DNA of 55,965 nt, the filler included, from Asterionella formosa (Eukaryota): the NCBI GenBank assembly GCA_002256025.1. It is 4 parts of 4 records of this genome, joined end to end, with 100 filler letters (N's around TTAATTAATTAA, not from the genome) between each part and the next. Parts side by side here need not be neighbours in the genome. Positions count along the whole stretch, not along the records: positions 42,058 to 55,965 come from NKIB01006317.1; 3 more parts are not named here. One strand, 5' to 3'. Both the position numbers and the translations under genes were made by a program. The notes under the pieces were generated by a model that was not told where the DNA came from, searched no databases, and saw nothing but the letters and a program-made list of their open reading frames with translations. This document shows positions 12,701-55,749 of this stretch, in pieces; position 1 is the stretch's first letter; every line of letters begins with the position of its first letter.

Positions 12701-13072
12701 ATCCACAATGCCAGCGATCATAACTTCGGGACCTACTTCGAGTAATCCCATTTTCTTGGCTTCCTTTTGAGCTGTCACCAAGGCGGCAATGCAGTCTTCT
12801 GACATGCGATCAAAGACCATGGACGTTGTGGTTGTGGCCCTTGATGTGCTTCGTCGATAGTAGCGATGAGAATGCTGCTTGGGAGCGAGAAACGAGCTGC
12901 TGCCAATGGAGTAATATGAGGAGCGTTTGATACAACTGCTGCAGCAGCTGCTACTGCTACTGCTACTCCAAGCATCAGCAGTGGGGCCTGACTGAAGCGC
13001 CACAATAGAAGCACATGCAAGGATGATGATTGCATGTCTCTTTCTCCGGTTCGTCAGCTCTGAGCTCTTCAT
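9776..13072 (-). CDS. clpC: Plastid-targeted Hsp100/Clp ATPase (ClpC/ClpA-like), 2 exons (13072-11219, 11134-9776), ~1070 aa
   Basis: Signal peptide ending TADA-W followed by a Ser-rich transit-like segment; Clp-N repeats; NBD1 GEPGVGKT and FIDEVH; NBD2 GPTGTGK|TE joined by an 84-bp GT-AG intron (11218-11135); [35 protein letters not shown]. Confidence 0.9.
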
Positions 13073-22000: not shown

Positions 22001-23911
22001 GATGTAGTCGTTCACGACTGGCAGCGGCTTGCGACGAGTTGTCTTGCCTTTTAGTGTTCCGATGTCAGGTCCAAAAATTTTCTCTGCAATTTTGATATCA
22101 TCGGTAGTCACTGGATTATTGTTGATCGTATTCATACGAATTATTGCCTTGAAATCATTAATTGATGGTGTACCCAAGGCATGGAATAGATCACGAGCTC
22201 GCTTAGCTCTCTGAAATTGACGTTCAGTGTAAAATGTTTTGTTTTCTTCAAGTGTATTTAACATTTGAGCATTCTCCGCTCTAATTCTTGTAGTTGGCTC
22301 GAAAACATATAAGTTCATCCCAATTCTTTCAAATCGAACTGTTTTGTCAGGCAAATGAACAATGAATGCATCTTCTTTCTCAGAGTCGTAGGTAATTCTG
22401 TACCTTTCTGCCATTTCGGCATAACTGAAGATGTTTGTGATAGCCTTTTCATTAAACCATACTTCTCCCCATTCTGGAAGATCAGCCTTCATATTAGTTA
22501 CCATGGATCCACCATTTGTGGCCAGGTGCATGCTTCTGTTGGTTGACATTCGAATGTTATTAACCATTTTTGGATTGCAAAAGACTGTGACACTTGATTG
22601 ATTATCCAATAGTATCCAGTCACCCATCTCAGATGCTTGGTAAAATTGTAGTTTCATATGAGCTCCCATCCATCCAAATTGATTGGCATTTGCTTGTTGT
22701 GAAGCTTGTGATGACGGCGGGTTGTTGGAATTAACAGAGGTAACTGTACTTGTGTCAGATGTATTAGCCTGTGCCTGTGCATGGCTTTGGGCCTTGTTAA
22801 TTGCCCATTCCTCTTTGGGTTTATTTTTGTCTCGACACGAAGGAGATTTGTGACCTGCTTTTCCGCAGCAGTAACATTTTCCTTCTAACTGTGCAAACGA
22901 TAAGTTCACATCTTCGTCTTCCTTGCCTGCATCCTTTTGTTTCCTCTCTTTATCATTATCTCCTGGTTTCTTGTAGGCAGATTTATTTGTTACGTCAAAC
23001 CGATGGTTGCTGAGAACATTATTTGATTCGGTGATGGTCTTTGGGTATTGATCGTTACCGAGTGACTGTTGAGTGTTCAGCCCGGTCATAATTGAACCGT
23101 ATTTACCTTTATCGGCATTATCGAGATATAAATATGCCATAAATTGACTGAAAGCTTGTTAGCGAAATTTATCTCGTTGCTTGATGTCGTTCTCATTGTA
23201 TCCTTCCATGGCTTCAACGAACTTGGTGAGGATAATGGGTCCTCCCATGTGTGACTTGAGCACATCTCGTGCCACACGAAATCTCTTGGTGTAGTCTTGT
23301 AGACTTTCTCCTTCTTTTTGCTTTGTGAATAAAAGCGTTCTCAACGCATCTAAAATGATCGACATTGAATATCGATTCTCTTGAAAATTTAGTGCGTGTT
23401 CTTTAATTGCCATAAGCAATGTTATTGGGTTATTTTCGATCCTATTGTAATCGGATCTTGCTTCAATCTTGTTCTTCATGGCTTTGTTGCATCTTTCCCA
23501 GAGCAACGCATATGCCTTGGTATTATTATTTTCGTAGGCCTGTACCCTTTTACTGTAGTTGTCATAATCAGCCTTAAACTCGATCTCAAATTGTCGATTC
23601 TCTGCAGCGCGATCTTCTTCTGTTGTTGCAATGCTCACTTGCATTCTTGGCTTCCATGCCGATGTGTTGATTGGTTCTAATGACTTGAGTGCGCTTCCAA
23701 TGTCGCTGCCATAATCAAACACTTTCTTGATATGATTGATGAGGTACTCAGTAGTAGTCTCATAGTCAGATGCCTGCTTCGATGATCCAAGGTAGTAGTT
23801 ATAGTCATTGACTGACTTCTTGATGGAGTGAGAAGCAATATTGCTCCCTCCCTTGGCTTGAAACTTGCCCTTGGCTTGAGCCTTCTTGGTAAACTTTCCT
23901 TTGCCACTCAT
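19046..23911 (-). pseudogene. Copia gag-pol polyprotein, one frame of 1622 codons interrupted by three in-frame stops
   Basis: The four listed ORFs share one frame and are separated only by TAA (23161-23159), TGA (21400-21398) and TAA (19975-19973). Motifs: CYCCGKAGHKSPSC; ILLDNQS; CMDG, HCDNEF, EAERNNRVIKE; ADIPNAF, WHIDDL; SSTEAE, DNTSA, ADYMTK. Confidence 0.92.
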
Positions 23912-24310: not shown

Positions 24311-24409
24311 GAATGAGAGAGTGAATTTGGAACTTGCACGTTGAATTCATCGAGAGATTGTATAAACTCAAGTTTTCAAACACGACCACAAAGAAAAAGG
24401 CGTTTCATC

Positions 24410-26707
24410 ATGATGGAACAACCAAACAACCAAAATCAACGAAACGTGAACGTATCATGGGAGGCATTAGGTTTGTCAGTGGCCAGTACAGCCCCCGAAC
24501 GAACTGTAGCTACAAATGAACATGACTTCAAAATGTTTTTAATAATGAATGGAAAATGTACTAAATGTGAAAGAAGTGTGCGTCGCGAAATGGATTCGTC
24601 CGGATCTTTGCGAGAACGCTGCGACTGTTGCATAGATGATCCTATTGATACAATTTTTAAAGTGATGCAAGTTCGGCCTATTGAGGCTGTCGATCTAGAG
24701 AAACATCTCAGCAATCTTCAGGAATTGGCTGCTTTTAACAACCAGGATGAGATTGTTAGAAAAGAAGGTATCGAGAAGATTATGACTGCTATGAATCATC
24801 ATTCAGGAATTGTTAATGTGCAAAAACATGGTATTGGAGCACTTGGAAGTTTGGCTAGGAATAATGACAAAAACAAGGTGGAGATTGCCAATAAAAGTGG
24901 TATCGCGGCGATTGTGAAAGCTATGACGAATCATCCCGACGAAGACGTTGTGCAAAATGAAGGTTGTAAAGAACTTTGGAACTTGGCTGTGGATGATACC
25001 AACAAGGAAAAGATTGTTGAAAAAGAAGGTATTGATGTGATTGTGTCTGCAATGATAAATCATTTAGATAAACCTCACGTGCAACACTATGGTTGTGCAG
25101 CACTTAATAACTTGGCTGTTAATGATATCAACAAGGAAAAGATTGTCGAAAAAGAAGGTATTGGTGTGATTGTGTCTGCAATGAAGAATCATTTAAGTTT
25201 TGTCGATGTGCAACGTTATGGTTGTGCAGCACTTAATAACTTGGCTATGAATGATACCAACAAGAAAAAGATTGGTGAAAAAGAAGGTATTGATGTGATT
25301 GTGTCTGCGATGAAGAATCATTTATCTAATGCTGATGTGCAACGTTATGGTTGTGCAGCACTGAATAACTTGTCTGTGAATGACAACAACAAGGAAGAGA
25401 TTGCTAGAGGAGACGGCATCGACATGATTGTAACTGCGATGGATAAATATCGTGATAATATTCATCTACAAGAATATGGTTTTTCAGCGCTGGCGAACTT
25501 GGCTGTTAATGATACCAACAAGGAAAAGATTGCTGGTGGAAAAGGTATCAAAATTATTATGTCTGCTATGGAAAAACATTCCTTAAATGCTAATTTACAA
25601 CACTATGGTTGTAAAGAACTTTTGAACTTGGCTTACAATGATAACAACAAGAAGAAGATTGGTAAAGGAAGAGGTACCGATAGCATTGTGTCTGCAATGA
25701 AGAATCATTTATTTAATGCTAATGTGCAACACTATGGTTGTGCAGCACTTAATAACTTGGCTGTGAATGATATCAACAAGGAAAAGATTGTTGAAAAAGA
25801 AGGTATTGATGTGATTGTGTCTGCAATGAAGAATCATTTATTTAATGCTAATGTGCAACACTATGGTTGTGCAGCACTCAATAATTTAGCTGTGAATGAC
25901 AACAACAAGGAAGAGATTGCTAGAGGAGATGGCATCGACATGATTGTGTCTGCAATGAAGAATCATTTAACTATTGTCGATGTGCAACACTATGGATGTG
26001 CAGCACTGAATAACTTGGCTGTGAATGATGACAACAAGAAGAAGATTGGTGAAGGAGAAGGTATTGATGTGATTGTGTCTGCAATGAAGAATCATTTAAC
26101 TATTGTCGATGTGCAACACTATGGTTGTGCAACACTAAATAACTTGGCTCTGAATGATGACAACAAGAAGAAGATTGGTGAAGGAGAAGGTATTGATGTG
26201 ATTGTGTCTGCAATGAAGAATCATTTAACTATTGTCGATGTGCAACACTATGGTTGTGCAGCACTAAATAACTTGGCTGTGAATGTTGACAACAAGAAGA
26301 AGATTGGTGAAGGAGAAGGTATTGAAATGATTGTGTCTGCAATGAAGCATCATTTAACTATTGTCGATGTGCAGCACTATGGTTGTGCAGCACTAAATAA
26401 CTTGGCTGTGAATGTTGACAACAAGAAGAAGATTGGTGAAGGAGAAGGTATTGATATGATTGTGTCTGCAATGAAGCATCATTTACCTATTGTCGATGTG
26501 CAGCACTATGGCTGTGCAGCACTTAATAACTTGGCTGTGAATGTTGACAACAAGAAGAAGATTTCCAGGGCTAATGGAAAAGACGTAATTGTGTCTGCTT
26601 TGCAAAATCACACATCTAATGCAGATGTGCAAAAAGAAGGTAAAGGAGCACTTGAACAAATTGCCCCATTGGAAACAATCATCATGGTCCTATTTAGGAA
26701 GATTTGA
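24410..26707 (+). CDS. Armadillo-repeat protein (~15 repeats of 43 aa) with an N-terminal Cys cluster, 765 aa from the first ATG
   Basis: Intronless ORF with repeat consensus GIDVIVSAMKNHLxxxDVQHYGCAALNNLAVNDDNKKKIGEGE (129-bp period) and N-terminal CTKC...CDCC. The ORF track start at 24341 is TTG; the first ATG is at 24410. Confidence 0.88.
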   Translation: MMEQPNNQNQRNVNVSWEALGLSVASTAPERTVATNEHDFKMFLIMNGKCTKCERSVRREMDSSGSLRERCDCCIDDPIDTIFKVMQVRPIEAVDLEKHLSNLQELAAFNNQDEIVRKEGIEKIMTAMNHHSGIVNVQKHGIGALGSLARNNDKNKVEIANKSGIAAIVKAMTNHPDEDVVQNEGCKELWNLAVDDTNKEKIVEKEGIDVIVSAMINHLDKPHVQHYGCAALNNLAVNDINKEKIVEKEGIGVIVSAMKNHLSFVDVQRYGCAALNNLAMNDTNKKKIGEKEGIDVIVSAMKNHLSNADVQRYGCAALNNLSVNDNNKEEIARGDGIDMIVTAMDKYRDNIHLQEYGFSALANLAVNDTNKEKIAGGKGIKIIMSAMEKHSLNANLQHYGCKELLNLAYNDNNKKKIGKGRGTDSIVSAMKNHLFNANVQHYGCAALNNLAVNDINKEKIVEKEGIDVIVSAMKNHLFNANVQHYGCAALNNLAVNDNNKEEIARGDGIDMIVSAMKNHLTIVDVQHYGCAALNNLAVNDDNKKKIGEGEGIDVIVSAMKNHLTIVDVQHYGCATLNNLALNDDNKKKIGEGEGIDVIVSAMKNHLTIVDVQHYGCAALNNLAVNVDNKKKIGEGEGIEMIVSAMKHHLTIVDVQHYGCAALNNLAVNVDNKKKIGEGEGIDMIVSAMKHHLPIVDVQHYGCAALNNLAVNVDNKKKISRANGKDVIVSALQNHTSNADVQKEGKGALEQIAPLETIIMVLFRKI

Positions 26708-35108: not shown

Positions 35109-36260
35109 ATGCTCACTTTGCTGGCTCAATCAATTCAACAAATCTCAAATCCAACCATGGCTGACGTTGACGCAGCAGCAGGAGGGCACGCCCCAACCCT
35201 AGAAGGGGACAGGGGAAACAATGTTCCCATGAAGAAGCGCAAAATGACCGAAGAGCAGTCGGACGATGTTCCGCAAACGACGGACTTCGGGACGAGCTAC
35301 GATGCCAAGCATACCAAGGCGTACGACGCACCTCCTTCGACCTTCGAGGCCGCTGCGAGTGCCGACCAAGATGGCGGTGGAGGCGCAAGCGCTGGCCCTC
35401 AGCCGATCAAGAGAGCCCCCATGCCCAAGGCACGGGAGATTCGCTTGGAACAGAACCGGAAGGCTGCTCGGGAGTCAAGGCGGAGAAAGAAGGTCATGAT
35501 CGAGGAGCTCCAACGAAGTGTCATCTTCTTCTCACGCGCAAATGGAACGCTCAAGCAGCAGAACGACGAACTCTCACGGCACTTGATGCAGGCGAAATCT
35601 CAAGTTGCCTCCATTGAGTCCGGCCAGCACCAAGCACAAGTTAATAGCCAGGAAGCTGCTGCCAAAGCACAATCCGAGGCGGCGAGTCAGCAACATCACT
35701 ACGCCAGTGCTTCGAATGTTTCTCAACAGGTGCAGGCAAACACGGTTGCTACTCAAGCCATGTACGAGAGCCAAGGCTTTCCTCCTGGTGCGGCTCGTTC
35801 GGCAGCACAAACCATGAACGCCTCAGCCCCGCCTGTGCAAGCTCATCCCGGAAACCAAGTCACATACAACCATCCGGCGCCAGCACCTGCTAATCCTCAG
35901 GTTTTGCCACCCATGCAGCCTGGTGCCACCATGCAGGCCATGGCCAACTTTCAGCAGGCGGCCACCGCCGCAATGCAGGCGGCCATGGGGATGAACCAAA
36001 CTGTCGCGACTCATATACAGCAACCGCAAGCGGCTCAAGCTCAACAGGCATACATGGATACCATGAATGCATTCATGCAACAACAAGCGGCTGCTGCCGC
36101 TGCTGCCGGACATCAGTATGTCATGGGAATGAACCCACAGATGCAGGGCATTCCTATGCAAATGATGCCACAGGCCATGATGGCTGGTCCTCCCATGACA
36201 TGGGCGCCTGCTCAACAGCAACAACAACAGCCACAGCAGTCTCACCAACATCAGTCATAG
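35109..36260 (+). CDS. bZIP transcription factor with a Gln/Ala/Met-rich C-terminal region (start may be the ATG at 35157)
   Basis: Basic region RLEQNRKAARESRRRKK followed by zipper IEELQRSVIFFSRANGTLKQQNDELSRHL; intronless, GC-rich coding bias. Confidence 0.9.
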   Translation: MLTLLAQSIQQISNPTMADVDAAAGGHAPTLEGDRGNNVPMKKRKMTEEQSDDVPQTTDFGTSYDAKHTKAYDAPPSTFEAAASADQDGGGGASAGPQPIKRAPMPKAREIRLEQNRKAARESRRRKKVMIEELQRSVIFFSRANGTLKQQNDELSRHLMQAKSQVASIESGQHQAQVNSQEAAAKAQSEAASQQHHYASASNVSQQVQANTVATQAMYESQGFPPGAARSAAQTMNASAPPVQAHPGNQVTYNHPAPAPANPQVLPPMQPGATMQAMANFQQAATAAMQAAMGMNQTVATHIQQPQAAQAQQAYMDTMNAFMQQQAAAAAAAGHQYVMGMNPQMQGIPMQMMPQAMMAGPPMTWAPAQQQQQQPQQSHQHQS

Positions 36261-41957: not shown

Positions 41958-42057
41958 NNNNNNNNNNNNNNNNNNNNNNNNNNNNNNNNNNNNNNNNNNN
42001 NTTAATTAATTAANNNNNNNNNNNNNNNNNNNNNNNNNNNNNNNNNNNNNNNNNNNN
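41958..42057. other. Artificial scaffold linker
   Basis: N-run with a central TTAATTAATTAA. Confidence 0.95.
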
Positions 42058-42152
42058 TACATATATTCATATACATTAAATAAAAATGAAAACATTCCCG
42101 ATTTCACGACAACGACAGGTCGTGGCAAGACAAGCAAAGCACCATTGCCACC

Positions 42153-45100
42153 ATGTCATCTGAAAGTACTCCTTTGATTCCTTGCAGCATCGAGGATGCC
42201 AGAACAACAGCGATAACAACGTCCCGTCGTGAACATGTCTTTAGCTTTTTGGAGGCCCAAACTCCTGGCGGTCGAATCTACGAACGGTTCACTGTGGTGT
42301 TGATTGTCCTCAATGTGCTGGCCTTTGTACTTGCCACACTCTTTGTTCAAGACTACAATCCAGAGCCATGGGCGATGCGGGAGGGGGGAATTTGCGGCAA
42401 TCTTTGTGATGCACTTTGGTTTGGGAATTACCCAGACAATGGGCTGGAGTTTCTGAACATGGGGACCACGTCTGTATTGGAAATAGTGACTGTTTTCATA
42501 TTCACTGTGGACTATTCGTGCCGAGTGTGGACGGCGGATTTGGAGAGTGACCTCTATCAAGGTGTTATGGGTCGATTGAAGTACCTTCCTACGTTTTACA
42601 GTTTGGTGGATTTGGCGTCAACAGTGCCCTTTTACATCGATGCCTTTGTATTAATACACAGTGATCTGGTGGCGTCTCAGGTATGTTTATTTTCTATGAA
42701 ACGCCATGGCTTTTGTTTTGGATTGTGGCCACTCTCAAGGCACTGCCAATGTTTCTCCTCTCTCACACGCACATATTAACACATCATCCAAACAGTTCCT
42801 CCGAATGTTCCGGCTCTTTCGGATGATGCGTGTTGAAGGAAGGTACGATACTGCTCTCACCATGTTTGATGATGTTTTTTATGAACAACGTGGGATTCTT
42901 GGGACTGCCCTCTTTGTTGGTGTAACGACATGGATGACAGTCAGTTCCTTGTATTACATGTGTGAACGAAGATCGAATGACATGATTTATTGCGGAACAG
43001 CTCCCGATTATTGCGGTGATACAGATGACATTGATGTTAGCTTATGTGTGATTGACTTTTGGGGAATTACAGATTGTACAGAAGCGGGGTGTCCTCCAAC
43101 GGATGGCGTACCAGAACCTTGTTACAACCTGTATAAGAGCATCCCCATGGCATCCTACTACAGTTTGCTAAACTTGTTTGGAGAATTTCCTCTGATTGAT
43201 CAACATAATGTAGCTGGGAAGATTGTGGGGTCCATGGTGGCGATCGTCGCCGTTGCTTTCTTTGCTCTCCCAGCTGGTATTATCGGTGAGTCATTTTGAT
43301 TTCCTGTTGTCGAAATAACAATTTCTTTTCTCTGCCTATACTCACCATTATGGTCACGTGACACATGGTGAATACATCCATATTTTATTCACTGCACCCC
43401 CAGGTAATGGATTTGAAGACTTGATTAATCGTCGTCGTGAGGAGCAAGGCCGCGGCCATTCCGGTCCAATTGAAGAAAAAGGGGGAATAACGGATGGATA
43501 TTCTGCCGACAACGGATCCTTTCGGGGACGATGCTATAACTTTTTTCATGCCCATACCACCAATAGCGCAAAAGCCTTTGACAATTTTATCAATGCTCTG
43601 GTATTGGGAACCGCCATTACGTTTATGATTGGGACTGTCGCTGCTATTTCGGCCACACAAGTCCGCATGAGCATGGATGTCTTTGAATTCTTGAGTGTCA
43701 TGGTGTTTACTGTAGAGTACACCCTTCGTGTTTACTCGGCAGCAGAAGACCCAAAGTACAATGGAGCTGGTGGGCAATTCAAGTATATGTGTACGTTCTT
43801 AGCAATTGTAGATTTGTTGACTGTGGCTCCGTATTGGCTCCAAGTTGGGTTTACGGGCCAGTTTGTGGAGATCGATGCCGACTCGTCGTGGTCGGTCCTC
43901 ATCAAGTGTTTGCGTCTTCTCCGTTTGCTTCGATTCGAAAAGTACACACACGCATTCACATCCTTTGATGACGTGATTTCGCAAAATTTGGATGTCTTGG
44001 CAGTGACTGGGTTTACTGCTATCCTTTTTTGGATATTCTTTGCGGCTATTTTGTATTTTACAGAACGTAATAGTCGAGACTCGGAAATGGCAAGCAATTA
44101 CAAAACTGTACCAGATGCCATGTGGATGACACTGCTCAACTTATCAGGAGAATCCCCCTTGGCACAGTATAGTGTGTATGGCAAGTTCATCACGGGTATT
44201 CTCGGCCTGTTTGCAACTGGTTTGTTTGGGATACCTATTGGTGTATTGGGCGCAGGTTTTGAACAGGTCATTGGAGCCGAAAATGAAGATACTCCCGATG
44301 AACCAGAGGAAGTCGACGAGACTCGTGTGTTGCCCATTGTGGGAACTGCATTCGAAAACTGGTGTTTTAATTTTGTCAACGGAGTTGGTTCAACAATGGC
44401 TAAGTACTTTGAACTTGGAATTTACTTTCTCATTTTTCTGACGGTGGGTGTCGGTATTTGGCAGACTGTTGAGGGCCACGATAACGATTTTCATCAAGCC
44501 GAGTGGGTGGCTGTCATTATCTTTACCGTTGAATACTTGATTCGTCTCATTGGGGTTGGAGCTGATCTCCAATTTGCCAAAGGTCGCAATTGGTTCACTT
44601 CCAGGGTTCGTTTCGTTATTTCGTTTTACTCCATTATTGATTTGCTCGCGATTCTACCCTTCTACATTGCAGCTGCCGCTCCGTCGTCTTGGGTTAACGA
44701 TTACGATGAAATGATGCGCATGTTCCGTTTGCTTCGACTTCTCAAATTGGACAAATATATTCCAAGTATCACGTTGATCGATGATGTGATTCGGCTTAAA
44801 CGAAAATCCTTGGTTGTGGCAGGATTTGCTGCAGGAACTCTATGGGTGCTCTTTTCAGCAATGATTTACGTCACTGAGTACAAGGACGACGTCAATGACA
44901 TCGACCCTGTTCCATTTTATGGTTGCTTCGGTAACTGCACAATGTCGGATCGATTCCAGAACTATTTTGACAGCATGGTTTACACTGGTGTTCATTTAAC
45001 TGGGGACTATCCCATAACAACATACAGTTGGCCAGCTCGGTTTGTCAACTTTTTCATGGTGATTGCAGCAGTTGGTGTAGTTTCCGTTCCTTCTGGTTTG

Positions 45101-46186
45101 ATTGCGAATGGCTTTGTTTCACTTGTTCAATCCAAGGCAAAGCGAAAAGCTGGCGATCTCTCAGGAGACATTGGTGACGACTGGTACGAACATCGATTGC
45201 GTGAAATCCGCTGTGAAGCAATACCCCTATCTCGATGGGGACCGACAGTAGACAAGTGGCAAATTGCCGTGAACGAGTATTTAAACGGACGAGAAGATGG
45301 ATCTAGGTCGTCATTTTCTCGAAAGTCCCGAGCTTTGATCTTTACTGTGATTGTCTTAAACGTGGCAGCCGTCCTAGCAGAGTCTGTCCCTGAAATAGAC
45401 CGCTACGTAACCAATGCACCAGGGAATTTTTTCGATGTGTTTGAAACTTTTTCCGTCTTTATCTTTGCTACGGAATACGCCCTTCGCCTGTTTTGTGCTC
45501 CAAAGAACTACGAATCTCTCTGTTCCAGCTTGGTCTACGCAACCACCTTTTTCGGAATTGTCGATTTCCTATCTACTGCTCCATGGTTCATAGAGCGAGC
45601 CTTGATTCACTTCGATGTTATTTCCCCTGACTCGGATGCAGCCATGATGTTCCGCATCTTCCGAATATTTCGAATGCTCCAAATGGAAGATTTTATCGTT
45701 GCCTTTAGCAAGCTCGACAACGTTTTTCGAGCATCCAAGGATGTATTTAAGGCGACAGGCCTCATGGCATTAATTGTGTGGGTCGGTTGTGGTGCCTTGT
45801 TCTTTCTCTTTGAGGAAAACAATCCGAACTGGAGATCGTGTGATTCATCGATTCCAGCACATTCGGCCAACCCCAAGATTCCCGGTTGCTATGACTTTCA
45901 CAGCACGACCGCATGTAACAACTTTTACCCCGGCATGTGCGAACAAAAGGCGTTCACCAATGTACCGAATGCATTATACTACACTGCTGTTTTCCTTGGT
46001 GGGGAGTGGGGTGTCATTGATTTTACATGGCCTGGGCGAATAGTCTGTCTGTTCTTGTGTGTGGTTGGAATTGGGTTGTATGCTATCCCCGTCGGTACTC
46101 TCTTTGATAGTTTCGGTGCTATCTTGGGTCTTGGAGGCGACAATGAGGATGAGGAAGAAATGGAAGGAGGTAATGAGAAGGAGTAG
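42153..46186 (+). CDS. Four-repeat (4x6TM) voltage-sensor-containing cation channel with Kv-like domains, 3 exons (42153-42680, 42796-43285, 43404-46186), 1266 aa
   Basis: GT-AG introns 42681-42795 and 43286-43403 give one continuous frame. Each of four repeats has S2 F[TA]x[ED]YxxR, S3 [IV]D[LF]xxxxP[FYW], an Arg-rich S4 (RMFRLFRMMR, KCLRLLRLLR, RMFRLLRLLK, FRIFRIFRM), a pore helix and an S6 PxG motif. Confidence 0.88.
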
Positions 46187-46346: not shown

Positions 46347-47778
46347 CTATGGCATAATACTGGATGGGGGCATCCTTGTGGGATCTGTCAAATGCTTTCG
46401 TCCCAACTCAGGGGCTTCATCTGCCAGAGGTGGCCATTTTCCACCTGCCATGCAATGTTCCACTTCGGAGATGGTGCGTGGACACATGGTAAAATTATAA
46501 AAGCCATTACTGGTGACACAAAACACATCTTCCAATCGAACCCCTCCAAAGCCTCTATATTCTTTCAATACATCGGCATTCAAAAACTTGCTGTGAACAG
46601 GGGATGCCAAGGCTTCGTCTAACAACCAATCAATAAAGTAACACCCCGGTTCATTGGTCAATACCATGGATTCTTTCAAGATCCTAGCCGTTCGTAACGA
46701 TTTGAGTCCTGGTTGTTGAATGCGTTCTGGATGGCCAGGCAAGTAGCCTCCCACATCATGCGTATCAATTCCAATGAAATGACCCAAACCGTGCGGCATA
46801 AATATGGCTCCCAATCTCATGTCAACCAAATTTTCTATAGTGGTAGTGCAGGGATCTTCCTCGACCATCACCACCCCCAAGTGTACCAATTGTGTCAAAA
46901 TGGCCCGTTCGGCCGCCTTGTGACAGTCTACCCAGCTCACCCCCGGTCGGATCATGGCCCACACGGCCTTTTGTGCATTCAAAACTGCTGTATATATTCC
47001 AGCTTGTTTTTCAGTAAAGATTCCACTTGCAGGATACGAGCAGGTAATATCACTACCATATCCAAAGTATTCAGCTCCCATATCCATCAATAACATATCA
47101 TTGGGTTGAATTTGTCGATTGTTAGGTTCTCCGGCATGTCCATAATGCAATATACTTGAATTGGGTCCACATCCACAAATGGGAGTGTAACCCACCAATC
47201 TAGATCCAAAATTAAAATATCCATAATGTCGAAATAAAGATTCACATTGATACTCCATCATAAATGGTTTCGTGTGACGCATGGTATAAACGTGTGCCAT
47301 GGATGAAATGTACGCAACATGCTCGAGGAGATTCAATTCGTACTCTGATTTGATCACTCTACATTCAGCAAGAATTGGAAATAATGTAGTTGTATCAATA
47401 CTGTGTTCCTTCATGATTTCAGACTTGAATATTGGAGCAGGATAGACATTGCCCGAATCTGAATTGGTCCCGTGCATTACGAGTAGTGCCAGCTGATGCT
47501 GTTGGTCGTCTGTGTTAAATAGTAGCCGATGTAAATATGACTCTGTATCGTCAGTGAACTGCACAAAATCCACTTGATATTTGTGTTTCCATTCATCCAA
47601 AGTGAGGATATGTCCCATAATAGTGGCATAACTCTGCGGTACTTTCGGAACGAACAAGGTCGTTCGTCCTGTTGTTGTCTCAATGGCGACAGCACAATCA
47701 GGGTCCATGACACCAGTCAACCAAAGGAAGTAAGATTCTTGACGAAAGATGGGTTCATGATCCGTGTCGTTTCTTGTC
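46347..47778 (-). CDS. PEPD: Xaa-Pro dipeptidase (prolidase, M24B), 5' part lost in the assembly gap
   Basis: FRQESYFLWLTGV, LMDMGAEYFGYGSDIT, MPHGLGHFIGIDTHDVGG, TNEPGCYF, GGVRLEDV. Confidence 0.92.
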
Positions 47779-48314
47779 NNNNNNNNNNNNNNNNNNNNNN
47801 NNNNNNNNNNNNNNNNNNNNNNNNNNNNNNNNNNNNNNNNNNNNNNNNNNNNNNNNNNNNNNNNNNNNNNNNNNNNNNNNNNNNNNNNNNNNNNNNNNNN
47901 NNNNNNNNNNNNNNNNNNNNNNNNNNNNNNNNNNNNNNNNNNNNNNNNNNNNNNNNNNNNNNNNNNNNNNNNNNNNNNNNNNNNNNNNNNNNNNNNNNNN
48001 NNNNNNNNNNNNNNNNNNNNNNNNNNNNNNNNNNNNNNNNNNNNNNNNNNNNNNNNNNNNNNNNNNNNNNNNNNNNNNNNNNNNNNNNNNNNNNNNNNNN
48101 NNNNNNNNNNNNNNNNNNNNNNNNNNNNNNNNNNNNNNNNNNNNNNNNNNNNNNNNNNNNNNNNNNNNNNNNNNNNNNNNNNNNNNNNNNNNNNNNNNNN
48201 NNNNNNNNNNNNNNNNNNNNNNNNNNNNNNNNNNNNNNNNNNNNNNNNNNNNNNNNNNNNNNNNNNNNNNNNNNNNNNNNNNNNNNNNNNNNNNNNNNNN
48301 NNNNNNNNNNNNNN
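47779..48314. other. Assembly gap (536 N)
   Basis: Run of N. Confidence 0.99.
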
Positions 48315-48652
48315 TATTTGAAACAGTATCGCCCCCAAAAAATCGTATATTTACCCAAATAAGGTTGAATCCATTATCGACCTTATCCATTACAATTATT
48401 AGTACAATAATATAAGCTGGTACCAGGTACTACCGGTACCTATAAGAATAGACTACTACCTTTACCGGTATGTAGTACGGTAGTATTTTATCTTTTGCTT
48501 CATTAAATAAGATCAAACACTCAAGAACAGTTCCAACAGCATCGTCATCAGGCATCATTGTTGCCCATTACCGGTACACCGGTAATCTCTTCCATCACTC
48601 GATCTGGTTGTCAAGTTTCTATATCCATGATACATGATATCTATGTATCATC

Positions 48653-51600
48653 ATGGAAAGTAGCACCATCAACATGGAGGAAGAATCAGCACTTCCTTTA
48701 TCATCATCAGATTATCATTATGAGAAGAGCGCGAAGCAGAAAATATTTCAAGACTTACAAGAACTAGCTCGAGATGTGAAGGACCTTGCTGTCGAATCTG
48801 TCTTGAAAGTCAAAGAAGCTGCCGTTGACAACGTCGACTATGTAGGCCATCAAACCTCCAAGTTACGGATACATGCAGTCGATCAATTCAAGGAGATACT
48901 ACACAACAATTTCCTGAGAAAGGTCGTTACATCGTCGTCGTGGTCCTGGCACATTTTGACACAAGATGATCGACTATGGATTGGAGGAGCTTTCGGCGTC
49001 ACGGTCATCTCGCTCCTTGTGTGGTTTTCTAGGAGAAAAATGACAACAAAACCAAGGTCCAGGAGCACCTTTGGTTCCATCACTATGGAGGAACCATCAA
49101 ACCGGGAAATATCAGGACGAGATCGGAAGGCATCCACAGATGAATCATTTCAGTCAAAACGAAATAATGCCATCAATATGTTGGCTCTTGGTCCCAACGT
49201 TGCATCCATCACGTATGAGACATGGGCACCTCCCACGCCATGGAGGGAGGCCGCAAAACATTTGCTACCTGCCAATATTAAAACCAAGCCACAATCGAAG
49301 ATCACTCTTGATATTCGAAAGGGCACATTACTCGTAAATCATATCAATGCCATCACCTATGATATTTCGAAAATAACTCTTGATATACAACGTCCCATCG
49401 AATCTGGGGTTGTGGAGCTTTTAGTGGCTGATCATGATCAGAAACTTGAACACACCTTTCAATCTGCATATGAAGCCGCTCAGTTTCAACACGACATAAT
49501 TGGCTACCAAGTGGTTGGAACACAATTAATACATATCTATCATGCCCTTGAACTTGCACATAAGGGAAGCATGGCGCATGTTGGGATGGAACCGGTATTG
49601 CATGACACAGCAGGCGATGCTGAATTCCAAGTAGGTGCTGTAGCATGGGATGATGTTATGAGGTGCTTGGGGGGTACAGCCGTCCGGTCAACATTGGAGC
49701 AAATCCGTATGCTGCAAGACGTTAAGGGTAACTACACCATTTTACCGACATTGCACCCAGATTATCGGAAAACACGGGCGTTTATTGGTCACGTCGATTT
49801 CTTTCGCTTGTTTGTGTCGGTCCTGCCAGAGACGGCCCTGCCTCATGTGGATTCGCATCCAACGAGATTGGAATATTGGTTACGACTTCGAAAGCAAGTG
49901 GCGGAAGCGGCTGTGTTGGTACGATCATATGTCGTGGCCATGCAAGTGGTGAATCAAGGGTGGAATCCATGGCCAGATCAAACAATGCTTCGACGTAGAA
50001 TGGCATTTGACAAGAATGTGGACAATTTGAATCGAGACCGGTCGTCACAAAGTGAATATTATGAAGCCACGGTGTCGCGAGATGTTCGCTGTGACATACA
50101 CACTCCACAACATCTCATCACAACGGGAGCATCTCAACAGTCGGCCTATCAAGCCTTTTCCCTAGTTTCTTGTCAAGCATTTCAACTCCCAAAAGATGGT
50201 AGGCCACATCACTTTTCGCATGCAGTCGATCCGGTAGAGGCACTACCAAGTCTGAAACAACTGATTTCCCATCATCTGGGACTGGACTTTTTCGTGAGCG
50301 TTTTCTTTCCAGAAGGCCCTCGCGTAGCCATTGTAAAGTTATTTGTCCGGTCTCTTCCCAAGGGGGTAGACCCAGGATTTGATGCAAACTGGCAACGATT
50401 CAAGACGAGTGACAAGGTGGTGCGCGACCGAAAATTGGCCTTGTTTGTTCAGCTTGGGCCTGGTTCTCTGTCACCGGTTGCTTGGGCCGCACTGAAGGTG
50501 GCATCCTTGTTCTTGAGATGGACAAGACGAGATGAACCCGCTGTCCCATCCGAGTCGGGAAATGAACGAACCCCCTTTCCAGGAATGATAATGCGCAACT
50601 ATATGAAGACAGCTCATTTTGGAGGGGCCCTCCAGACAAATCCGGCTTTGCCTGGAAACTATGTGGCTGTCACATCTCGTGTCGATTCTAGTACAATGAA
50701 CATGGTATTTCGTGCCCTTTATCAGAAATTAGAAGCTGGAGCCTTGCCAAGTTCCACGATAGATTTTACGTATGTCTTGGAAGGGGAGCAAAAAGATCAA
50801 TTGCCAGAACGAGCCTTGGGGACCATTCGAATTGTCCGCATGAGCCCAGTCTCTTGTGCCCTACCGATCGAATGTAGTGCAAAGCAAGCCGAGCCGACTG
50901 CGCGCGAGGCTCGGATTATGCGGAGTATTACGCCATTGCGCAAGTCTGAAACATCAACCTCACAAGCTGTCGACTTCTCCCTGGATGTTCAAGCACGAAA
51001 CAATACAGTTGTTTCCCCTGTGAATAGGGCTATCAATATGACATACAATTCACTCAGGAGCATCTTTTCATTTGAAGATGTTAGTAACGAAGAAGCGAAG
51101 GATGAGGTAGAAGAACTTTCAGTGGGTGAGCATTTTCAGAACAACCTGGACAAGGACGATCCATTCAAAGATGGGGTTGATGCACTAGCAGATATTTTAG
51201 TGGACATTCAAGTGCCTGTCCGACGTGCAAGTCTAACGCTGGAAGAGATTGCTTTGGTGACCCCAATTCCGGTTGATGGTCGCCCCGAACTTGCTTTATT
51301 AACAAAACAGGACAATTGGTGCAACATTGCTATCAACAAGAGAATGACAAAATCGGATTTGAAGCGATTTTATCTTGCTGCTGAATGCGATATAAAAATT
51401 GCAGCGGTGCGAGTTGTTGAGAGTATAGCATGGCGGGGCAAGATGTTTCCTATTGATACACGAGAGTGTAGGATTGAGTTGCAAATTGGACAGTTCTTCC
51501 AACAAGGCAAAGATTATTTTGGCAACCCTGTTTTCTACTTTCAGACCATGTGCCTTGGACCTTGGAGAAAAAACGAGGAGGCTGTAATTCGGGCAGTCCT

Positions 51601-52213
51601 GCATCGCCTGGAAACTTCCATTCAACACTATTCTACGAAAAAACCTGACGTGCAATGTACAGTTGTGATTGTTTTGGGCAAACCCATATTTCGAACTCAA
51701 ACAACGAAGAATACTGCAAAGAGTAAAAAAGGTGTTGGTGATGATGTTAGTACCAAACGAACCGATGTGGCAAGTTTGGACCCACTTGACGGAAATGGCG
51801 AAGATGATGAGACTAATCAAACAGTAGCTACTGAAAGAGAGTTTGATCCTTCAGCGTGGGATCCCTACAGACTGGGAGTGAATCCTCGCCTTTGTTCTGG
51901 CGAAGACTATTATGCGCATGCGACTACCAAAATGATTGCACGACTTATTGACACGTTATCAAAACACTACCCTGAACGCCTTCACAAAGCCCTATGTGTT
52001 CCCGGAAAGGGCGGTTATGCATACCATCCAAATATACCAAATGCATTTGCACTTATGATGCAATTGTCCAAATACATTCCTTCTGCTCGAACCAGAGCAA
52101 AGGTGATTTTTTTACGTCGAGTTGGTGAGCTGAAGGAGTATATTAGCCCAGAGGAGATGGTCACATTAGTCGGCGGCAGGTCTCTAGTCCATCCCAATGC
52201 CTTTGAGTGCTAG
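48653..52213 (+). CDS. 1186-aa membrane-anchored protein with EDR2_C (DUF1336)-like and C-terminal CRAL-TRIO (Sec14-like) domains
   Basis: TM segment LWIGGAFGVTVISLLVWFS; IDFTYVLEGEQKDQLPERALGTIRI resembles the EDR2_C C-terminal motif; DLKRFYLAAECDIKIA..SIAWR, GKDYFGNPVFY, KHYPERLHKA, TRAKVIFL and LKEYISPEEMVTLVGG are CRAL-TRIO motifs. Confidence 0.8.
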   Translation: MESSTINMEEESALPLSSSDYHYEKSAKQKIFQDLQELARDVKDLAVESVLKVKEAAVDNVDYVGHQTSKLRIHAVDQFKEILHNNFLRKVVTSSSWSWHILTQDDRLWIGGAFGVTVISLLVWFSRRKMTTKPRSRSTFGSITMEEPSNREISGRDRKASTDESFQSKRNNAINMLALGPNVASITYETWAPPTPWREAAKHLLPANIKTKPQSKITLDIRKGTLLVNHINAITYDISKITLDIQRPIESGVVELLVADHDQKLEHTFQSAYEAAQFQHDIIGYQVVGTQLIHIYHALELAHKGSMAHVGMEPVLHDTAGDAEFQVGAVAWDDVMRCLGGTAVRSTLEQIRMLQDVKGNYTILPTLHPDYRKTRAFIGHVDFFRLFVSVLPETALPHVDSHPTRLEYWLRLRKQVAEAAVLVRSYVVAMQVVNQGWNPWPDQTMLRRRMAFDKNVDNLNRDRSSQSEYYEATVSRDVRCDIHTPQHLITTGASQQSAYQAFSLVSCQAFQLPKDGRPHHFSHAVDPVEALPSLKQLISHHLGLDFFVSVFFPEGPRVAIVKLFVRSLPKGVDPGFDANWQRFKTSDKVVRDRKLALFVQLGPGSLSPVAWAALKVASLFLRWTRRDEPAVPSESGNERTPFPGMIMRNYMKTAHFGGALQTNPALPGNYVAVTSRVDSSTMNMVFRALYQKLEAGALPSSTIDFTYVLEGEQKDQLPERALGTIRIVRMSPVSCALPIECSAKQAEPTAREARIMRSITPLRKSETSTSQAVDFSLDVQARNNTVVSPVNRAINMTYNSLRSIFSFEDVSNEEAKDEVEELSVGEHFQNNLDKDDPFKDGVDALADILVDIQVPVRRASLTLEEIALVTPIPVDGRPELALLTKQDNWCNIAINKRMTKSDLKRFYLAAECDIKIAAVRVVESIAWRGKMFPIDTRECRIELQIGQFFQQGKDYFGNPVFYFQTMCLGPWRKNEEAVIRAVLHRLETSIQHYSTKKPDVQCTVVIVLGKPIFRTQTTKNTAKSKKGVGDDVSTKRTDVASLDPLDGNGEDDETNQTVATEREFDPSAWDPYRLGVNPRLCSGEDYYAHATTKMIARLIDTLSKHYPERLHKALCVPGKGGYAYHPNIPNAFALMMQLSKYIPSARTRAKVIFLRRVGELKEYISPEEMVTLVGGRSLVHPNAFEC

Positions 52214-54354: not shown

Positions 54355-55749
54355 TTAAAATCCAAAATCACCATCATCAAATCCATATTCACTCTTGTCA
54401 TCATCGCTCCCATCTGCATCACTATCATTTCCCTTGGCAGCAGCTGCTGCTGCCTCTTCAAATCCAGCCAATTCAGTAAAGTCCACCTTCCATCGTAAGA
54501 TTCCTCCAACACCCCCAAAGCCTTTGACAAATTGCGTACCTTCGCCACTACGGTCCGTGACAAACTCCAAATTGCAGCCATAGTTCTTGTAGTTGTTGGC
54601 CATCCACTCCACAAAAGGTTCTTGTTCTTGCACTTCTAACTCCGCTCCAGTTTCTGGATCGCGAAAAACGTTTTCGTTTTGTTCTTGCACTTTGGTGAGG
54701 TGAACCACTTGCTCAAGTCCTGTGGAACTATTCTTGAGGACGTATCGAATGATCTCAAGGTTATCCCAAATGATCAAGTCTTCCACAGCTCCTAGTTCAA
54801 GTGCCTTGAGCGTGTCCTCCACCATGAAGCAATACTTTCCAGTATCAAGTGAAATCTCGTCCATGTATTTCTGCAAGAGTTTTTTCTCCTTTAGCAGTTT
54901 TACGTTTGTCAAGGTATCCGCACTCATTTCAATTGCTTGATTGAATCCCTGTTCGCCTCCATAGCTCACATCCACCATCTTGACAACAATCTTGCTCAAT
55001 CTAGCATCAAACAGGTCTGAGCGCATGAGTTCCGCCTTGAAGTCCGCACTCCCCGCCAAGACAATGCCCTGCACGTTGGGCCGTTGTCCATCCGTGATGA
55101 AAAGTTGCGTGGCCATTTCCGCCACCTTGCGCACATAGTTGTGTCGCTTCTCTAAGCGCAGTCTCGCAAATCGCAGCGCGGACTGTCCTCCGCGTCCATG
55201 CTTCTTGGGCAGGTCCACCGAGAACTTGTGCAGAATTTCCTTGTTGCTGCCCTGCACCGTCCCGTAGAGGGATCCGTTTCCGTCCATGATGATAAACCCG
55301 AATGCCTCGTCGTCAATGAGCAACTCCATGAGATCCTCTGTGTGGAACTTGTTGTCGCATAGGTACAAGGAAGTGTTGATGGGCTTGAATGGCTCAAAGT
55401 CAATGTTCACCTTGCGCTCCTTGCCGTCGTCTGAGATGACAGTTCCGCAGTAGAGGACCAGCCCGTTCTTGGGGCACTTGTTGTACAGCTTGAGCCGCTG
55501 CTGCGTGGAGGTGATGGCCCCCAGCACGGAGAGGCGGTTGACTCTGGACTTGATGTTGGATGCTGTGCCGTACTCGTCGCTGAGCATCTTGTTGACTCGA
55601 CTCAACTGATCTCCGGGCGGAATGATGAGCGAGATCATGGAGGTTCCGTTTCCGCGCGCTGCTTGAAGATTTTTGATCAGTTTCTTCACTTTGAACATTT
55701 CAATTTGTTTGTCGAGTTCATCTTGAGGGGTATTGTCGTTTTGTCCCAT
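54355..55749 (-). CDS. ETF1: Eukaryotic peptide chain release factor subunit 1, 464 aa
   Basis: GTS, TASNIKS, YLCDNKF and HGRGGQS motifs; [10 protein letters not shown]; acidic tail; intronless. Confidence 0.98.

Follow-up and report, generated by a model that had tools for sequence, protein, structure and literature searches.

Textbooks trace all four-domain cation channels with an acidic ring in the filter to one ancient double duplication. In trees, the repeats of voltage-gated Ca2+ (Cav) and Na+ (Nav) channels pair I with III and II with IV, and the pores of Cav, Nav and bacterial Nav (BacNav) channels contain a first pore helix (P1), the filter, and a second pore helix (P2). Voltage-gated K+ (Kv) channels of the KCNQ (Kv7) and Kv4 types are assembled from four separate subunits with a T-x-G-Y-G filter, and KCNQ channels carry C-terminal calmodulin-binding and tetramerisation helices. 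Here we describe a locus of the diatom Asterionella formosa (assembly GCA_002256025.1) in which four Kv-like repeats, each of six transmembrane segments (6TM), are joined in one chain and have an acidic filter. It lies at 42153-46186 (+ strand) of a stretch of 55,965 nucleotides joined from four parts of that genome, called the window below, in which all positions are counted.

Several described systems resemble this locus in part. Fused Kv-like 6TM repeats, sorted by position and specialised, occur as two-repeat channels in protists of the stramenopile-alveolate-Rhizaria (SAR) group; these have TVGYG-like filters and are expected to conduct K+, whereas the Asterionella protein has four repeats and a shortened, acidic filter (PMC7576140). 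The same paper reports no tandem channels in diatoms, describes large deviations from TVGY/FG as rare except in metazoan cyclic-nucleotide-gated (CNG) channels, and mentions CNGK of marine invertebrates, a four-repeat K+ channel with cyclic-nucleotide-binding domains (CNBDs). The CNG filter is TIGETPPP, its Glu causes Ca2+ block, and NaK chimeras with the CNG filter are non-selective and blocked by Ca2+ (PMC4555469).

Among diatoms, four-domain Cav/Nav channels (4D-Cav/Nav) were found in 6 of 24, all of them centric (Helliwell et al. 2019, PMC6509283), and a later survey reports Cav as missing in pennates apart from one homologue in S. robusta (2024, Plants, PMC11085791). Both papers report a loss of four-domain Cav/Nav channels in pennates, that homologue of the later survey apart. 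The EukCatA/B/C and BacNav channels are, like the present protein, candidates for voltage-gated cation channels of diatoms outside 4D-Cav and are present in pennates; unlike it, they are single 6TM subunits of the BacNav type with T-L-x-x-W filters, not four Kv-derived repeats (PMC6509283).

One spliced gene for four voltage-sensing repeats

The locus is an expressed gene. Its three exons (Table 1) give a spliced coding sequence of 3801 nucleotides (nt) for 1266 amino acids (aa) and a stop codon, and the database protein P0001, also of 1266 aa, has the same exon structure and differs in 4 of the 1266 residues. Two RNA contigs from two studies, one of run X1 (polyA RNA-seq, 3799 nt) and one of run X2 (metatranscriptome, 5665 nt), start at 42105/42110, lack both introns and reach at least to 46141; a third study contributes a contig, of run X7, that crosses intron 2. 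Because the contigs span the gene with both introns removed, the repeats are made as one spliced mRNA; being assembled contigs, they are uninformative on expression level and transcript ends. An earlier note, made from the sequence of the window, had claimed a single 1266-aa chain with four 6TM repeats. Gene model and P0001 agree with this claim, the RNA confirms the splicing across all four repeats, and the S2, S3, pore-helix, S6 and filter motifs that the note had quoted are all found in the translation where it placed them.

The repeats occupy approximately aa 28-345, 378-630, 655-915 and 975-1250, with linkers of about 32, 24 and 59 residues between them, and only about 20 residues, forming a short acidic tail, follow S6 of repeat IV. 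Compared with one another, they share 24-29% identity (BLASTP E 4e-15 to 7e-28). Pfam assigns Ion_trans to the product of exon 1 (E 1.2e-6), to three stretches of the exon 3 product (E 1.1e-48) and, below the curated cut-off of 25 bits, to the exon 2 product taken alone (E 5.3e-4, 19.7 bits); at E ≤ 0.01, no other family is matched by any of the three exon products.

All repeats have the parts of a voltage sensor. The S4 segments carry Arg or Lys at every third position, with 4-5, 5, 5 and 3 such charges in repeats I to IV; the S2 Phe and acidic residue and the S3 Asp are present as counter-charges. In an alignment of 105 sequences, the columns of the S2 Phe, the S3 Asp and the S4 Arg are at least 90% conserved; the S4 Arg residues that reach this level are R182 (position 142+40), R513, R781, R784, R1093 and R1096. 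Further along, each repeat has its pore helix and then S6, which is hinged at P-x-G. The loops between S5 and the pore helix (S5-P loops) are long and rich in Cys in repeats I and IV, and repeat III has a Cys-rich loop as well; the three are probably disulphide-bonded.

Kinship of the repeats with Kv channels

The repeats descend from Kv channels and not from the Cav/Nav lineage, as their closest structural relatives indicate. phmmer was run against all PDB chains, at E ≤ 10 for the single repeats and the whole protein and at E ≤ 1e-3 for exon 3. For repeat II, the best 60 of 73 matches are all Kv, headed by KCNQ1 (E 3.3e-15), and the same is true of the best 60 of 61 for repeat III (KCNQ2, E 1.6e-8), the best 60 of 70 for exon 3, and the best 60 of 71 for the whole protein, where residues 102-239 of repeat I align with residues 53-191 of KCNQ2. 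The 37 matches of repeat IV comprise 30 Kv chains (Kv4.2 at E 3.1e-5, KCNQ3 at E 3.1e-4) and 7 chance matches (E 0.24-0.78). No Cav, Nav, NALCN, BacNav, two-pore channel (TPC), CatSper, CNG or HCN chain is found among the PDB matches listed at E ≤ 10.

The alignment of repeat II with KCNQ1 extends from the pre-S1 helix through S6, with 'RCYNFF' against 'RVYNFL' and 'FGIPIGVLGAGF' against 'FALPAGILGSGF', and the S6 sequence 'FFALPAGIIG' stands against 'FFALPAGILG' of KCNQ1. In an AlphaFold model of repeat II (predicted local distance difference test, pLDDT, 83.7), the best 50 Foldseek matches are all Kv, the first being Kv4.2 with a template-modelling (TM) score of 0.77 and a root-mean-square deviation of 3.1 Å. 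The PDB lists and the single-repeat fold search thus favour the Kv-like nature that had been proposed for the repeats over a Cav/Nav one. Proteins of one-repeat length account for 58 matches at E ≤ 1e-3 and are mostly fragments of the acidic four-repeat family; the 17 independent one-repeat relatives have Ion_trans and Ion_trans_2 domains and GYG or GFG filters.

KCNQ and Kv4 channels are accordingly the best matches by sequence and by fold, each repeat aligning over its full length from pre-S1 to S6. Shared with them are the S2 motif F-x-x-E-Y-x-x-R, the S3 Asp, the R-x-x-R pattern of S4, an S4-S5 helix of 11-13 residues, the pore helix and the P-x-G of S6. The differences are that four repeats here lie in one open reading frame (ORF) and one spliced RNA instead of four separate subunits, and that the filter has Glu or Asp and is two residues shorter than T-x-G-Y-G. 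The calmodulin-binding and tetramerisation helices of the KCNQ C-terminus are not present: Pfam finds Ion_trans only, and the chain ends some 20 residues after the last S6.

Selectivity filter and acidic ring

The filter strings are NLFGEFP (from 43171), NLSGESP (44138), HLTGDYP (44993) and FLGGEWG (45992). They follow the pattern [FSTG]-G-[E/D]-x-[P/G], which has two residues fewer than T-T-I-G-Y-G, and all four repeats have Leu in place of the Thr ahead of the filter. A T-x-G-Y/F-G filter is absent from each of them (FGEFP, SGESP, TGDYP, GGEWG). In the HMMER alignment, 'LNLS--GESPLAQYSVYGK' of repeat II is set against 'VTVTTIGYGDKVPQTWIGK' of KCNQ1, so that GESP lies over G-Y-G-D after a deletion of two residues; it is from this alignment that the filter is concluded to be shorter than a K+ filter by two residues, with Glu at the place of the Tyr of GYG.

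Among 328 proteins gathered, 106 have four near-complete repeats. Their rings are EEDE in 94, EEDD in 7, EED- in 2 truncated proteins and AQNA in 1, and the remaining 2 are GYG proteins; E/E/D/E or E/E/D/D, the former being the ring that the earlier note had read at this locus, is therefore kept in 101 of the 106. In the alignment of 105 sequences, conservation of the filter's Gly, Glu and Pro is 90% or more, and across the family identity falls to about 25% while the acidic residues are strictly kept. The protein with the AQNA ring, P0140 (1313 aa), has lost the acidic residues, with filters GAF / HQD / GNY / GAW, and is perhaps a paralogue that does not conduct or that selects differently.

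The earlier note had set the acidic ring beside that of Cav/Nav-family channels. The ring is indeed real and conserved, but its closest precedent is the G-E-T-P filter of the CNG type and not the T-x-E-x-W loop of Cav; a Cav-type T-x-E-x-W filter was rejected, since the filter aligns with GYG and the P2 helix is absent from the structural model. With CNG channels the protein shares a pore derived from a K+ channel, a filter lacking two residues of the GYG signature, the G-E-x-P sequence and a ring of Glu. This is a resemblance only, consisting of G-[E/D]-x-P in repeats I-III, G-E-W-G in repeat IV and the two-residue deletion. The S4-S5 helices, at 11-13 residues, are of the Kv type and longer than the linkers found in CNBD channels, and Pfam finds no cNMP_binding match, and hence no C-linker/CNBD region, in the exon products. 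Since there is no CNBD, the linker is of the Kv type and no CNG chain is among the PDB matches listed, the likeness to the CNG filter is considered convergent.

Fold of the whole chain

Residues 41-1240 were modelled with AlphaFold2 from 104 homologues, at a mean pLDDT of 90.5 and a predicted TM score (pTM) of 0.89, and the model shows a pseudo-tetramer of 24 transmembrane segments (24-TM), the Cav-like form that the earlier note had proposed. In every repeat of the model, DSSP assigns a pore helix of 12 residues, then 10-11 residues outside any helix, then S6, and a P2 helix is found in none of them. The S4-S5 helix measures 11-13 residues in every repeat. Long S4-S5 linkers are of the Kv-like, domain-swapped type, and those of CNBD channels are shorter than 10 residues (PMC7576140).

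In a Foldseek search with the whole chain, all of the best 50 matches are four-domain Nav, Cav or NALCN channels, with query TM scores (TMq) of 0.51-0.61 and identities of 11-15%. The list does not count here as evidence of descent, since coverage gives an advantage to any 24-TM protein in one chain. As modelled, the overall body plan has converged on that of Nav, Cav and NALCN: both have a single-chain 24-TM pseudo-tetramer, a ring of four acidic residues, and long, asymmetric, Cys-rich outer loops, and the E/E/D/D ring seen in 7 of the 106 relatives is that of T-type Cav channels. Unlike these channels, the protein has no detected sequence kinship with them, no P2 helix and a filter of the K+-channel type; it is compact, with 1266 aa and linkers of 24-59 residues, and Pfam finds no IQ or EF-hand domains. 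The four repeats, the lack of any BacNav or Cav chain among the PDB matches listed and the absent P2 helix likewise set it apart from EukCat and canonical 4D-Cav channels, as had been claimed.

Distribution and phylogeny of the family

With repeat II as query, an exhaustive HMMER scan of 1.84 billion representatives yields 3561 proteins at E ≤ 1e-3, of which 152 reach E ≤ 1e-30, and the best 150 are mostly 1000-1900 aa long with four matched stretches. By their filters, the members fall into two subfamilies. Subfamily A, which includes the diatom proteins, has the filters [FL]GE[FY]P / [ST]GExP / TGD[YF]P / GGEW[GA] and is present in pennates (Grammatophora, Nitzschia, Epithemia, Mayamaea, Seminavis, Pseudo-nitzschia, Cylindrotheca) and centrics (Cyclotella, Attheya, Thalassiosira exigua). 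Subfamily B belongs to dinoflagellates, has the filters [KRCHG]E[HEY]P / HGEW[PVI] / GDYP / GEWA, and includes, as named members, proteins of Symbiodinium microadriaticum (annotated 'kcna2, partial') and Prorocentrum cordatum. The xanthophyte Tribonema minus gives a weaker match of 24% identity, which is placed in the family from similarity, and a haptophyte cluster is an Atlas lead only (score 0.97).

Some relatives depart from these patterns. In members of subfamily B such as P0259, P0215, P0248 and P0232, K, R, C or H takes the place of the Gly before the repeat I Glu, and the motif of repeat II is H-G-E-W; a basic residue beside the ring might alter selectivity. Six proteins of 588-704 aa (P0165, P0181, P0183, P0219, P0223, P0241) have two repeats with the filters of the family. 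P0165 resembles the half made of repeats 1 and 2 (GEFP/GEFP), and the others resemble the half made of repeats 3 and 4, five of these relatives with GDYP/GEW and P0181 with GDMP/GEW. They may be fragments or real half-channels.

All trees were built after removal of the filter columns, with acidic repeats and GYG channels as rows and without Cav, Nav, BacNav and TPC sequences. The acidic repeats, 62 of the 92 in a quick LG+G4 tree, all fall into a single clade there, supported at 99 in the Shimodaira-Hasegawa-like approximate likelihood ratio test (SH-aLRT), and the 34 among the 58 repeats of a more careful LG+C20+F+G4 tree do so at 99/98. In the latter tree, repeats 2, 3 and 4 make up position-specific clades in 7 of 8 proteins (99/96, 100/99 and 99/98), and the clade of repeat 1 has a support of 95/53. 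The acidic family arose by one tandem multiplication followed by conversion of the filter, and is older than the split between subfamilies A and B. Of the per-domain phylogeny put forward earlier, the separation of the acidic repeats from GYG channels as one clade is recovered.

Tandem proteins with GYG filters are also present. The four-repeat proteins P0191 (1493 aa), together with P0220, and P0268 (1748 aa), which has one aberrant repeat and GYG in the others, each cluster with themselves (100/100). Since the repeats of P0191, P0268 and P0220 cluster per protein, these are independent quadruplications of a K+ channel subunit. The two-repeat GYG proteins P0256 and P0265 are found among one-repeat GYG channels, outside the acidic clade, and from the separate clustering of the GYG tandem proteins it follows that Kv-like subunits were multiplied in tandem several times. 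CNGK likewise is an independent fusion of four repeats of the K+-channel type into one chain; it is metazoan and has GYG filters and a CNBD in each repeat, unlike the diatom protein. Pozdnyakov 2020 (PMC7576140) reports two-repeat forms only, as against the four repeats of P0191, P0268 and P0220.

Proposed function and alternative explanations

We read the locus as an expressed gene for a Kv-derived, pseudo-tetrameric channel that would be opened by depolarisation, would not be selective for K+ and would pass Ca2+, and we give this joint reading a probability of roughly 0.62. By analogy, it is probable that the channel is voltage-gated, non-selective for K+ and permeable to Ca2+. The independent tandem quadruplication of a Kv-type subunit, proposed in the earlier note, is supported by the kinship with Kv, the acidic clade and the single transcript.

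Anatomy, ancestry, expression and conservation follow from the observations above: the repeats come from a Kv-type, KCNQ/Kv4-like subunit by internal quadruplication and not from the Cav/Nav/NALCN lineage. Gating polarity, selectivity, membrane location and physiological role we infer as follows. Depolarisation would shift the four S4 segments, and the S4-S5 helices would then open the S6 gate at the P-x-G hinge. The shortened filter is predicted to destroy the stacked carbonyl sites for K+, which would no longer be selected. The acidic ring at the outer mouth would bind Ca2+, with the consequence that Ca2+ may permeate and monovalent current be blocked, as in CNG channels; Na+ and K+ probably pass along with Ca2+. 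The protein would thus be a candidate route of voltage-gated Ca2+ entry in diatoms, including pennates without a four-domain Cav.

Several observations weigh against this reading. Repeat IV is the weakest of the four, with three Arg in S4 and a Kv match at 3e-5. The repeats of P0122, the eighth protein of the LG+C20+F+G4 tree, group weakly together and not by position; its filter motifs are position-specific, and in a quick tree with the relatives P0148 and P0178 its repeats 3 and 4 do sort by position. The order of the repeat duplications is not settled by either tree, and because the trees contain no Cav, Nav or TPC sequences, exclusion from that clade rests on the PDB rankings and the absent P2 helix. 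In K+ channels, the Tyr of GYG, with which the carboxylates of the ring are aligned, points away from the pathway. Selectivity for Ca2+ or cations in general is drawn from the analogy with the CNG filter, and BacNav channels with E/E/E/E are selective for Na+, so that an acidic ring alone is no proof of Ca2+ selectivity (PMC5824947).

Two alternatives concern the origin of the chain. That the four-repeat protein is an artefact, adjacent one- or two-repeat genes having been falsely fused by prediction or assembly, is hardly credible: several database relatives do have two repeats only (P0165, P0219, P0223, P0241), and exon 3 by itself can be read as a three-repeat ORF, but the frame is unbroken through all repeats, the introns are canonical, and homologues of about 1270-1300 aa occur in many diatoms, some as transcripts flagged 'type:complete'. 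This explanation was rejected on the RNA contigs of two studies, which cross all four repeats in spliced form. It is also very improbable that the protein is a highly divergent member of the Cav/Nav/NALCN lineage that shares the two ancestral rounds of duplication and owes its Kv likeness to retained ancestral features. Such membership would suit four 6TM repeats and an acidic ring in one chain, as well as the whole-chain Foldseek list, whose best 50 matches are solely four-domain channels, and the trees were built without the sequences concerned. The long Cys-rich S5-P loops of repeats I and IV and the III-IV linker of about 59 residues recall the asymmetric turrets and short III-IV linker of 4x6TM channels (PMC6259924). 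However, no chain of this lineage is among the per-repeat PDB matches listed at E ≤ 10 (all matches of repeat IV, 60 of 61 of repeat III), and all repeats lack the P2 helix in a model with a pLDDT of 90. The filter falls on GYG with a two-residue deletion, the pre-S1 helix and the S6 'FFALPAGIIG' align with KCNQ, the closest one-repeat proteins are K+ channels with GYG or GFG, and a fold match at 11-15% identity is expected of any 24-TM pseudo-tetramer.

Two others accept the Kv-derived chain and differ in what it conducts. A tandem Kv channel with an odd filter that passes or prefers K+, with a role in repolarisation or K+ uptake and not in Ca2+ entry, seems improbable. The Kv ancestry of the repeats and the existence of tandem GYG relatives with four and two repeats (P0191, P0268, P0220, P0256, P0265) agree with it, as does the warning of Pozdnyakov 2020 that the motif alone does not reveal selectivity (PMC7576140). 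Yet no repeat keeps T-x-G-Y/F-G, two residues are missing, the preceding Thr is Leu throughout, and the strict retention of four acidic residues down to about 25% identity points to a carboxylate function; G-E-T-P filters of CNG channels and NaK2CNG chimeras are moreover reported to be non-selective (PMC4555469). A voltage-gated channel that carries monovalent ions, Na+ in particular, with a ring serving mainly for divalent block, or else an organellar cation channel, is also unlikely, if less so. E/E/E/E gives Na+ selectivity in BacNav (PMC5824947), in CNG channels the block by Ca2+ that the Glu brings about goes along with slow passage of Ca2+ (PMC4555469), and TPCs are organellar voltage-gated ion channels with several repeats (PMC11085791). 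As to an organellar location, the Cys-rich S5-P loops of repeats I, III and IV suit an extracellular and a lumenal face alike.

Features of the locus and neighbouring genes

Table 1. Coordinates in the window of the exons, introns, repeats, S4 segments and filter cores of the four-repeat channel gene
Feature	Coordinates	Strand	Description
Exon 1	42153..42680	+	aa 1-176; N-terminus with the start codon, then the pre-S1 helix and segments S1-S3 of repeat I
Intron 1	42681..42795	+	115 nt, GT..AG, directly 5' of repeat I S4; removed in contigs X1 and X2
Exon 2	42796..43285	+	Repeat I S4-S6 including Cys-rich S5-P loop and filter; aa 177-339 and base 1 of codon 340
Repeat I S4	42796..42843	+	FLRMFRLFRMMRVEGR; Arg every third position
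Repeat I filter core	43180..43191	+	G-E-F-P, E306; G-E in 80/80 full-length diatom homologues
Intron 2	43286..43403	+	118 nt, GT..AG, phase 1; removed in contigs X1, X2 and X7
Exon 3	43404..46186	+	Last part of S6 in repeat I, all of repeats II-IV, acidic tail at the C-terminus, stop codon
Repeat II	43517..44275	+	aa 378-630; most KCNQ-like repeat
Repeat II S4	43898..43942	+	LIKCLRLLRLLRFEK; five K/R, every third position
Repeat II filter core	44147..44158	+	G-E-S-P, E589; G-E in 80/80 full-length diatom homologues
Repeat III	44348..45130	+	aa 655-915
Repeat III S4	44711..44755	+	MMRMFRLLRLLKLDK; five R/K
Repeat III filter core	45002..45013	+	G-D-Y-P, D874; G-D in 80/80 full-length diatom homologues
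Repeat IV	45308..46135	+	aa 975-1250
Repeat IV S4	45647..45682	+	MFRIFRIFRMLQ; three Arg
Repeat IV filter core	46001..46012	+	G-E-W-G, E1207; among 80 full-length diatom homologues, 72 have E, 7 have D and 1 has a gap

The RNA contigs start at 42105-42110, which gives a 5' untranslated region of about 45 nt, and runs of N at 42002-42057, about 100 nt upstream of the start codon, cover the promoter region. Near-identical RNA contigs are present in lake-water and freshwater metatranscriptomes of several studies (X2-X5, X7-X13; shares 0.26-0.90), and the owner of the gene is therefore a freshwater organism active in the field.

Downstream, at 46347-48338 (-), lies a convergent gene for an M24 Xaa-Pro aminopeptidase-like protein (Peptidase_M24 E 2e-48, AMP_N E 2.5e-19), the 5' part of which is under a run of N and the end of which is about 160 nt from the stop codon of the channel; the 5665-nt contig X2 continues beyond 46340 into it. 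Elsewhere in the window, two adjoining ORFs at 9776-13072 (-) contain AAA+ domains of the ClpB/Hsp104 type (AAA_2 E 1.7e-56, ClpB_D2-small, AAA, AAA_lid_9) and are probably a single gene broken by an intron or a change of frame. An ORF at 19973-23140 (-) has a weak match to RVT_2, the Copia-type reverse transcriptase (E 9e-8), adjoins a 580-aa ORF with no Pfam match, and may be a retroelement remnant. Ordinary nuclear genes encode ARM-repeat (24341-26704, +), bZIP (35109-36257, +), CRAL-TRIO (48653-52210, +) and eRF1 (54358-55749, -) proteins.

Relation to earlier surveys and significance

The genomes covered in PMC11085791 include those of Pseudo-nitzschia multiseries, Nitzschia inconspicua, Mayamaea pseudoterrestris and Cyclotella cryptica. 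Because these surveyed species have members of the acidic family, the diatom surveys did not count it. A set of 277 four-domain sequences was gathered with human Nav, Cav and NALCN and yeast Cch1 as queries (BLASTp E ≤ 1e-25), and diatom transcriptomes were not among the data searched for it (PMC5824947). An 'EEDE' site among non-animal 4x6TM channels is mentioned in PMC6259924, which cites Verret et al. 2010 for it. Searches of the full text, supplements aside, of Creative Commons-licensed PMC papers and of bioRxiv brought up no account of a Kv-like channel that has four repeats and an acidic filter, in line with the claim that the family is undescribed.

A wider reading is held more tentatively, at somewhat less than even odds. 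According to it, the locus belongs to an old and widespread Kv-derived four-repeat family of diatoms, xanthophytes, dinoflagellates and probably haptophytes, whose Cav-like plan evolved independently of the Cav/Nav lineage, and which would be voltage-gated, permeable to Ca2+ and a candidate for the 'missing' four-domain calcium channel of the pennates; channel surveys would have missed it because neither Cav queries nor the GYG signature detect its members. Among the other diatom candidates, EukCatA was reportedly expressed in HEK (human embryonic kidney) cells or oocytes.

If the proposed nature of the channel is true, there was a second route, from a Kv subunit, to the body plan that textbooks derive from one double duplication, and channel evolution would offer, in this family, a clear instance of convergence. 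The family would serve, besides, as a natural experiment in which a K+ filter was turned into a Ca2+ or cation filter through a two-residue deletion and a ring of Glu and Asp. For globally important phytoplankton, pennates and dinoflagellates included, the family adds a candidate component to models of excitability and Ca2+ signalling.

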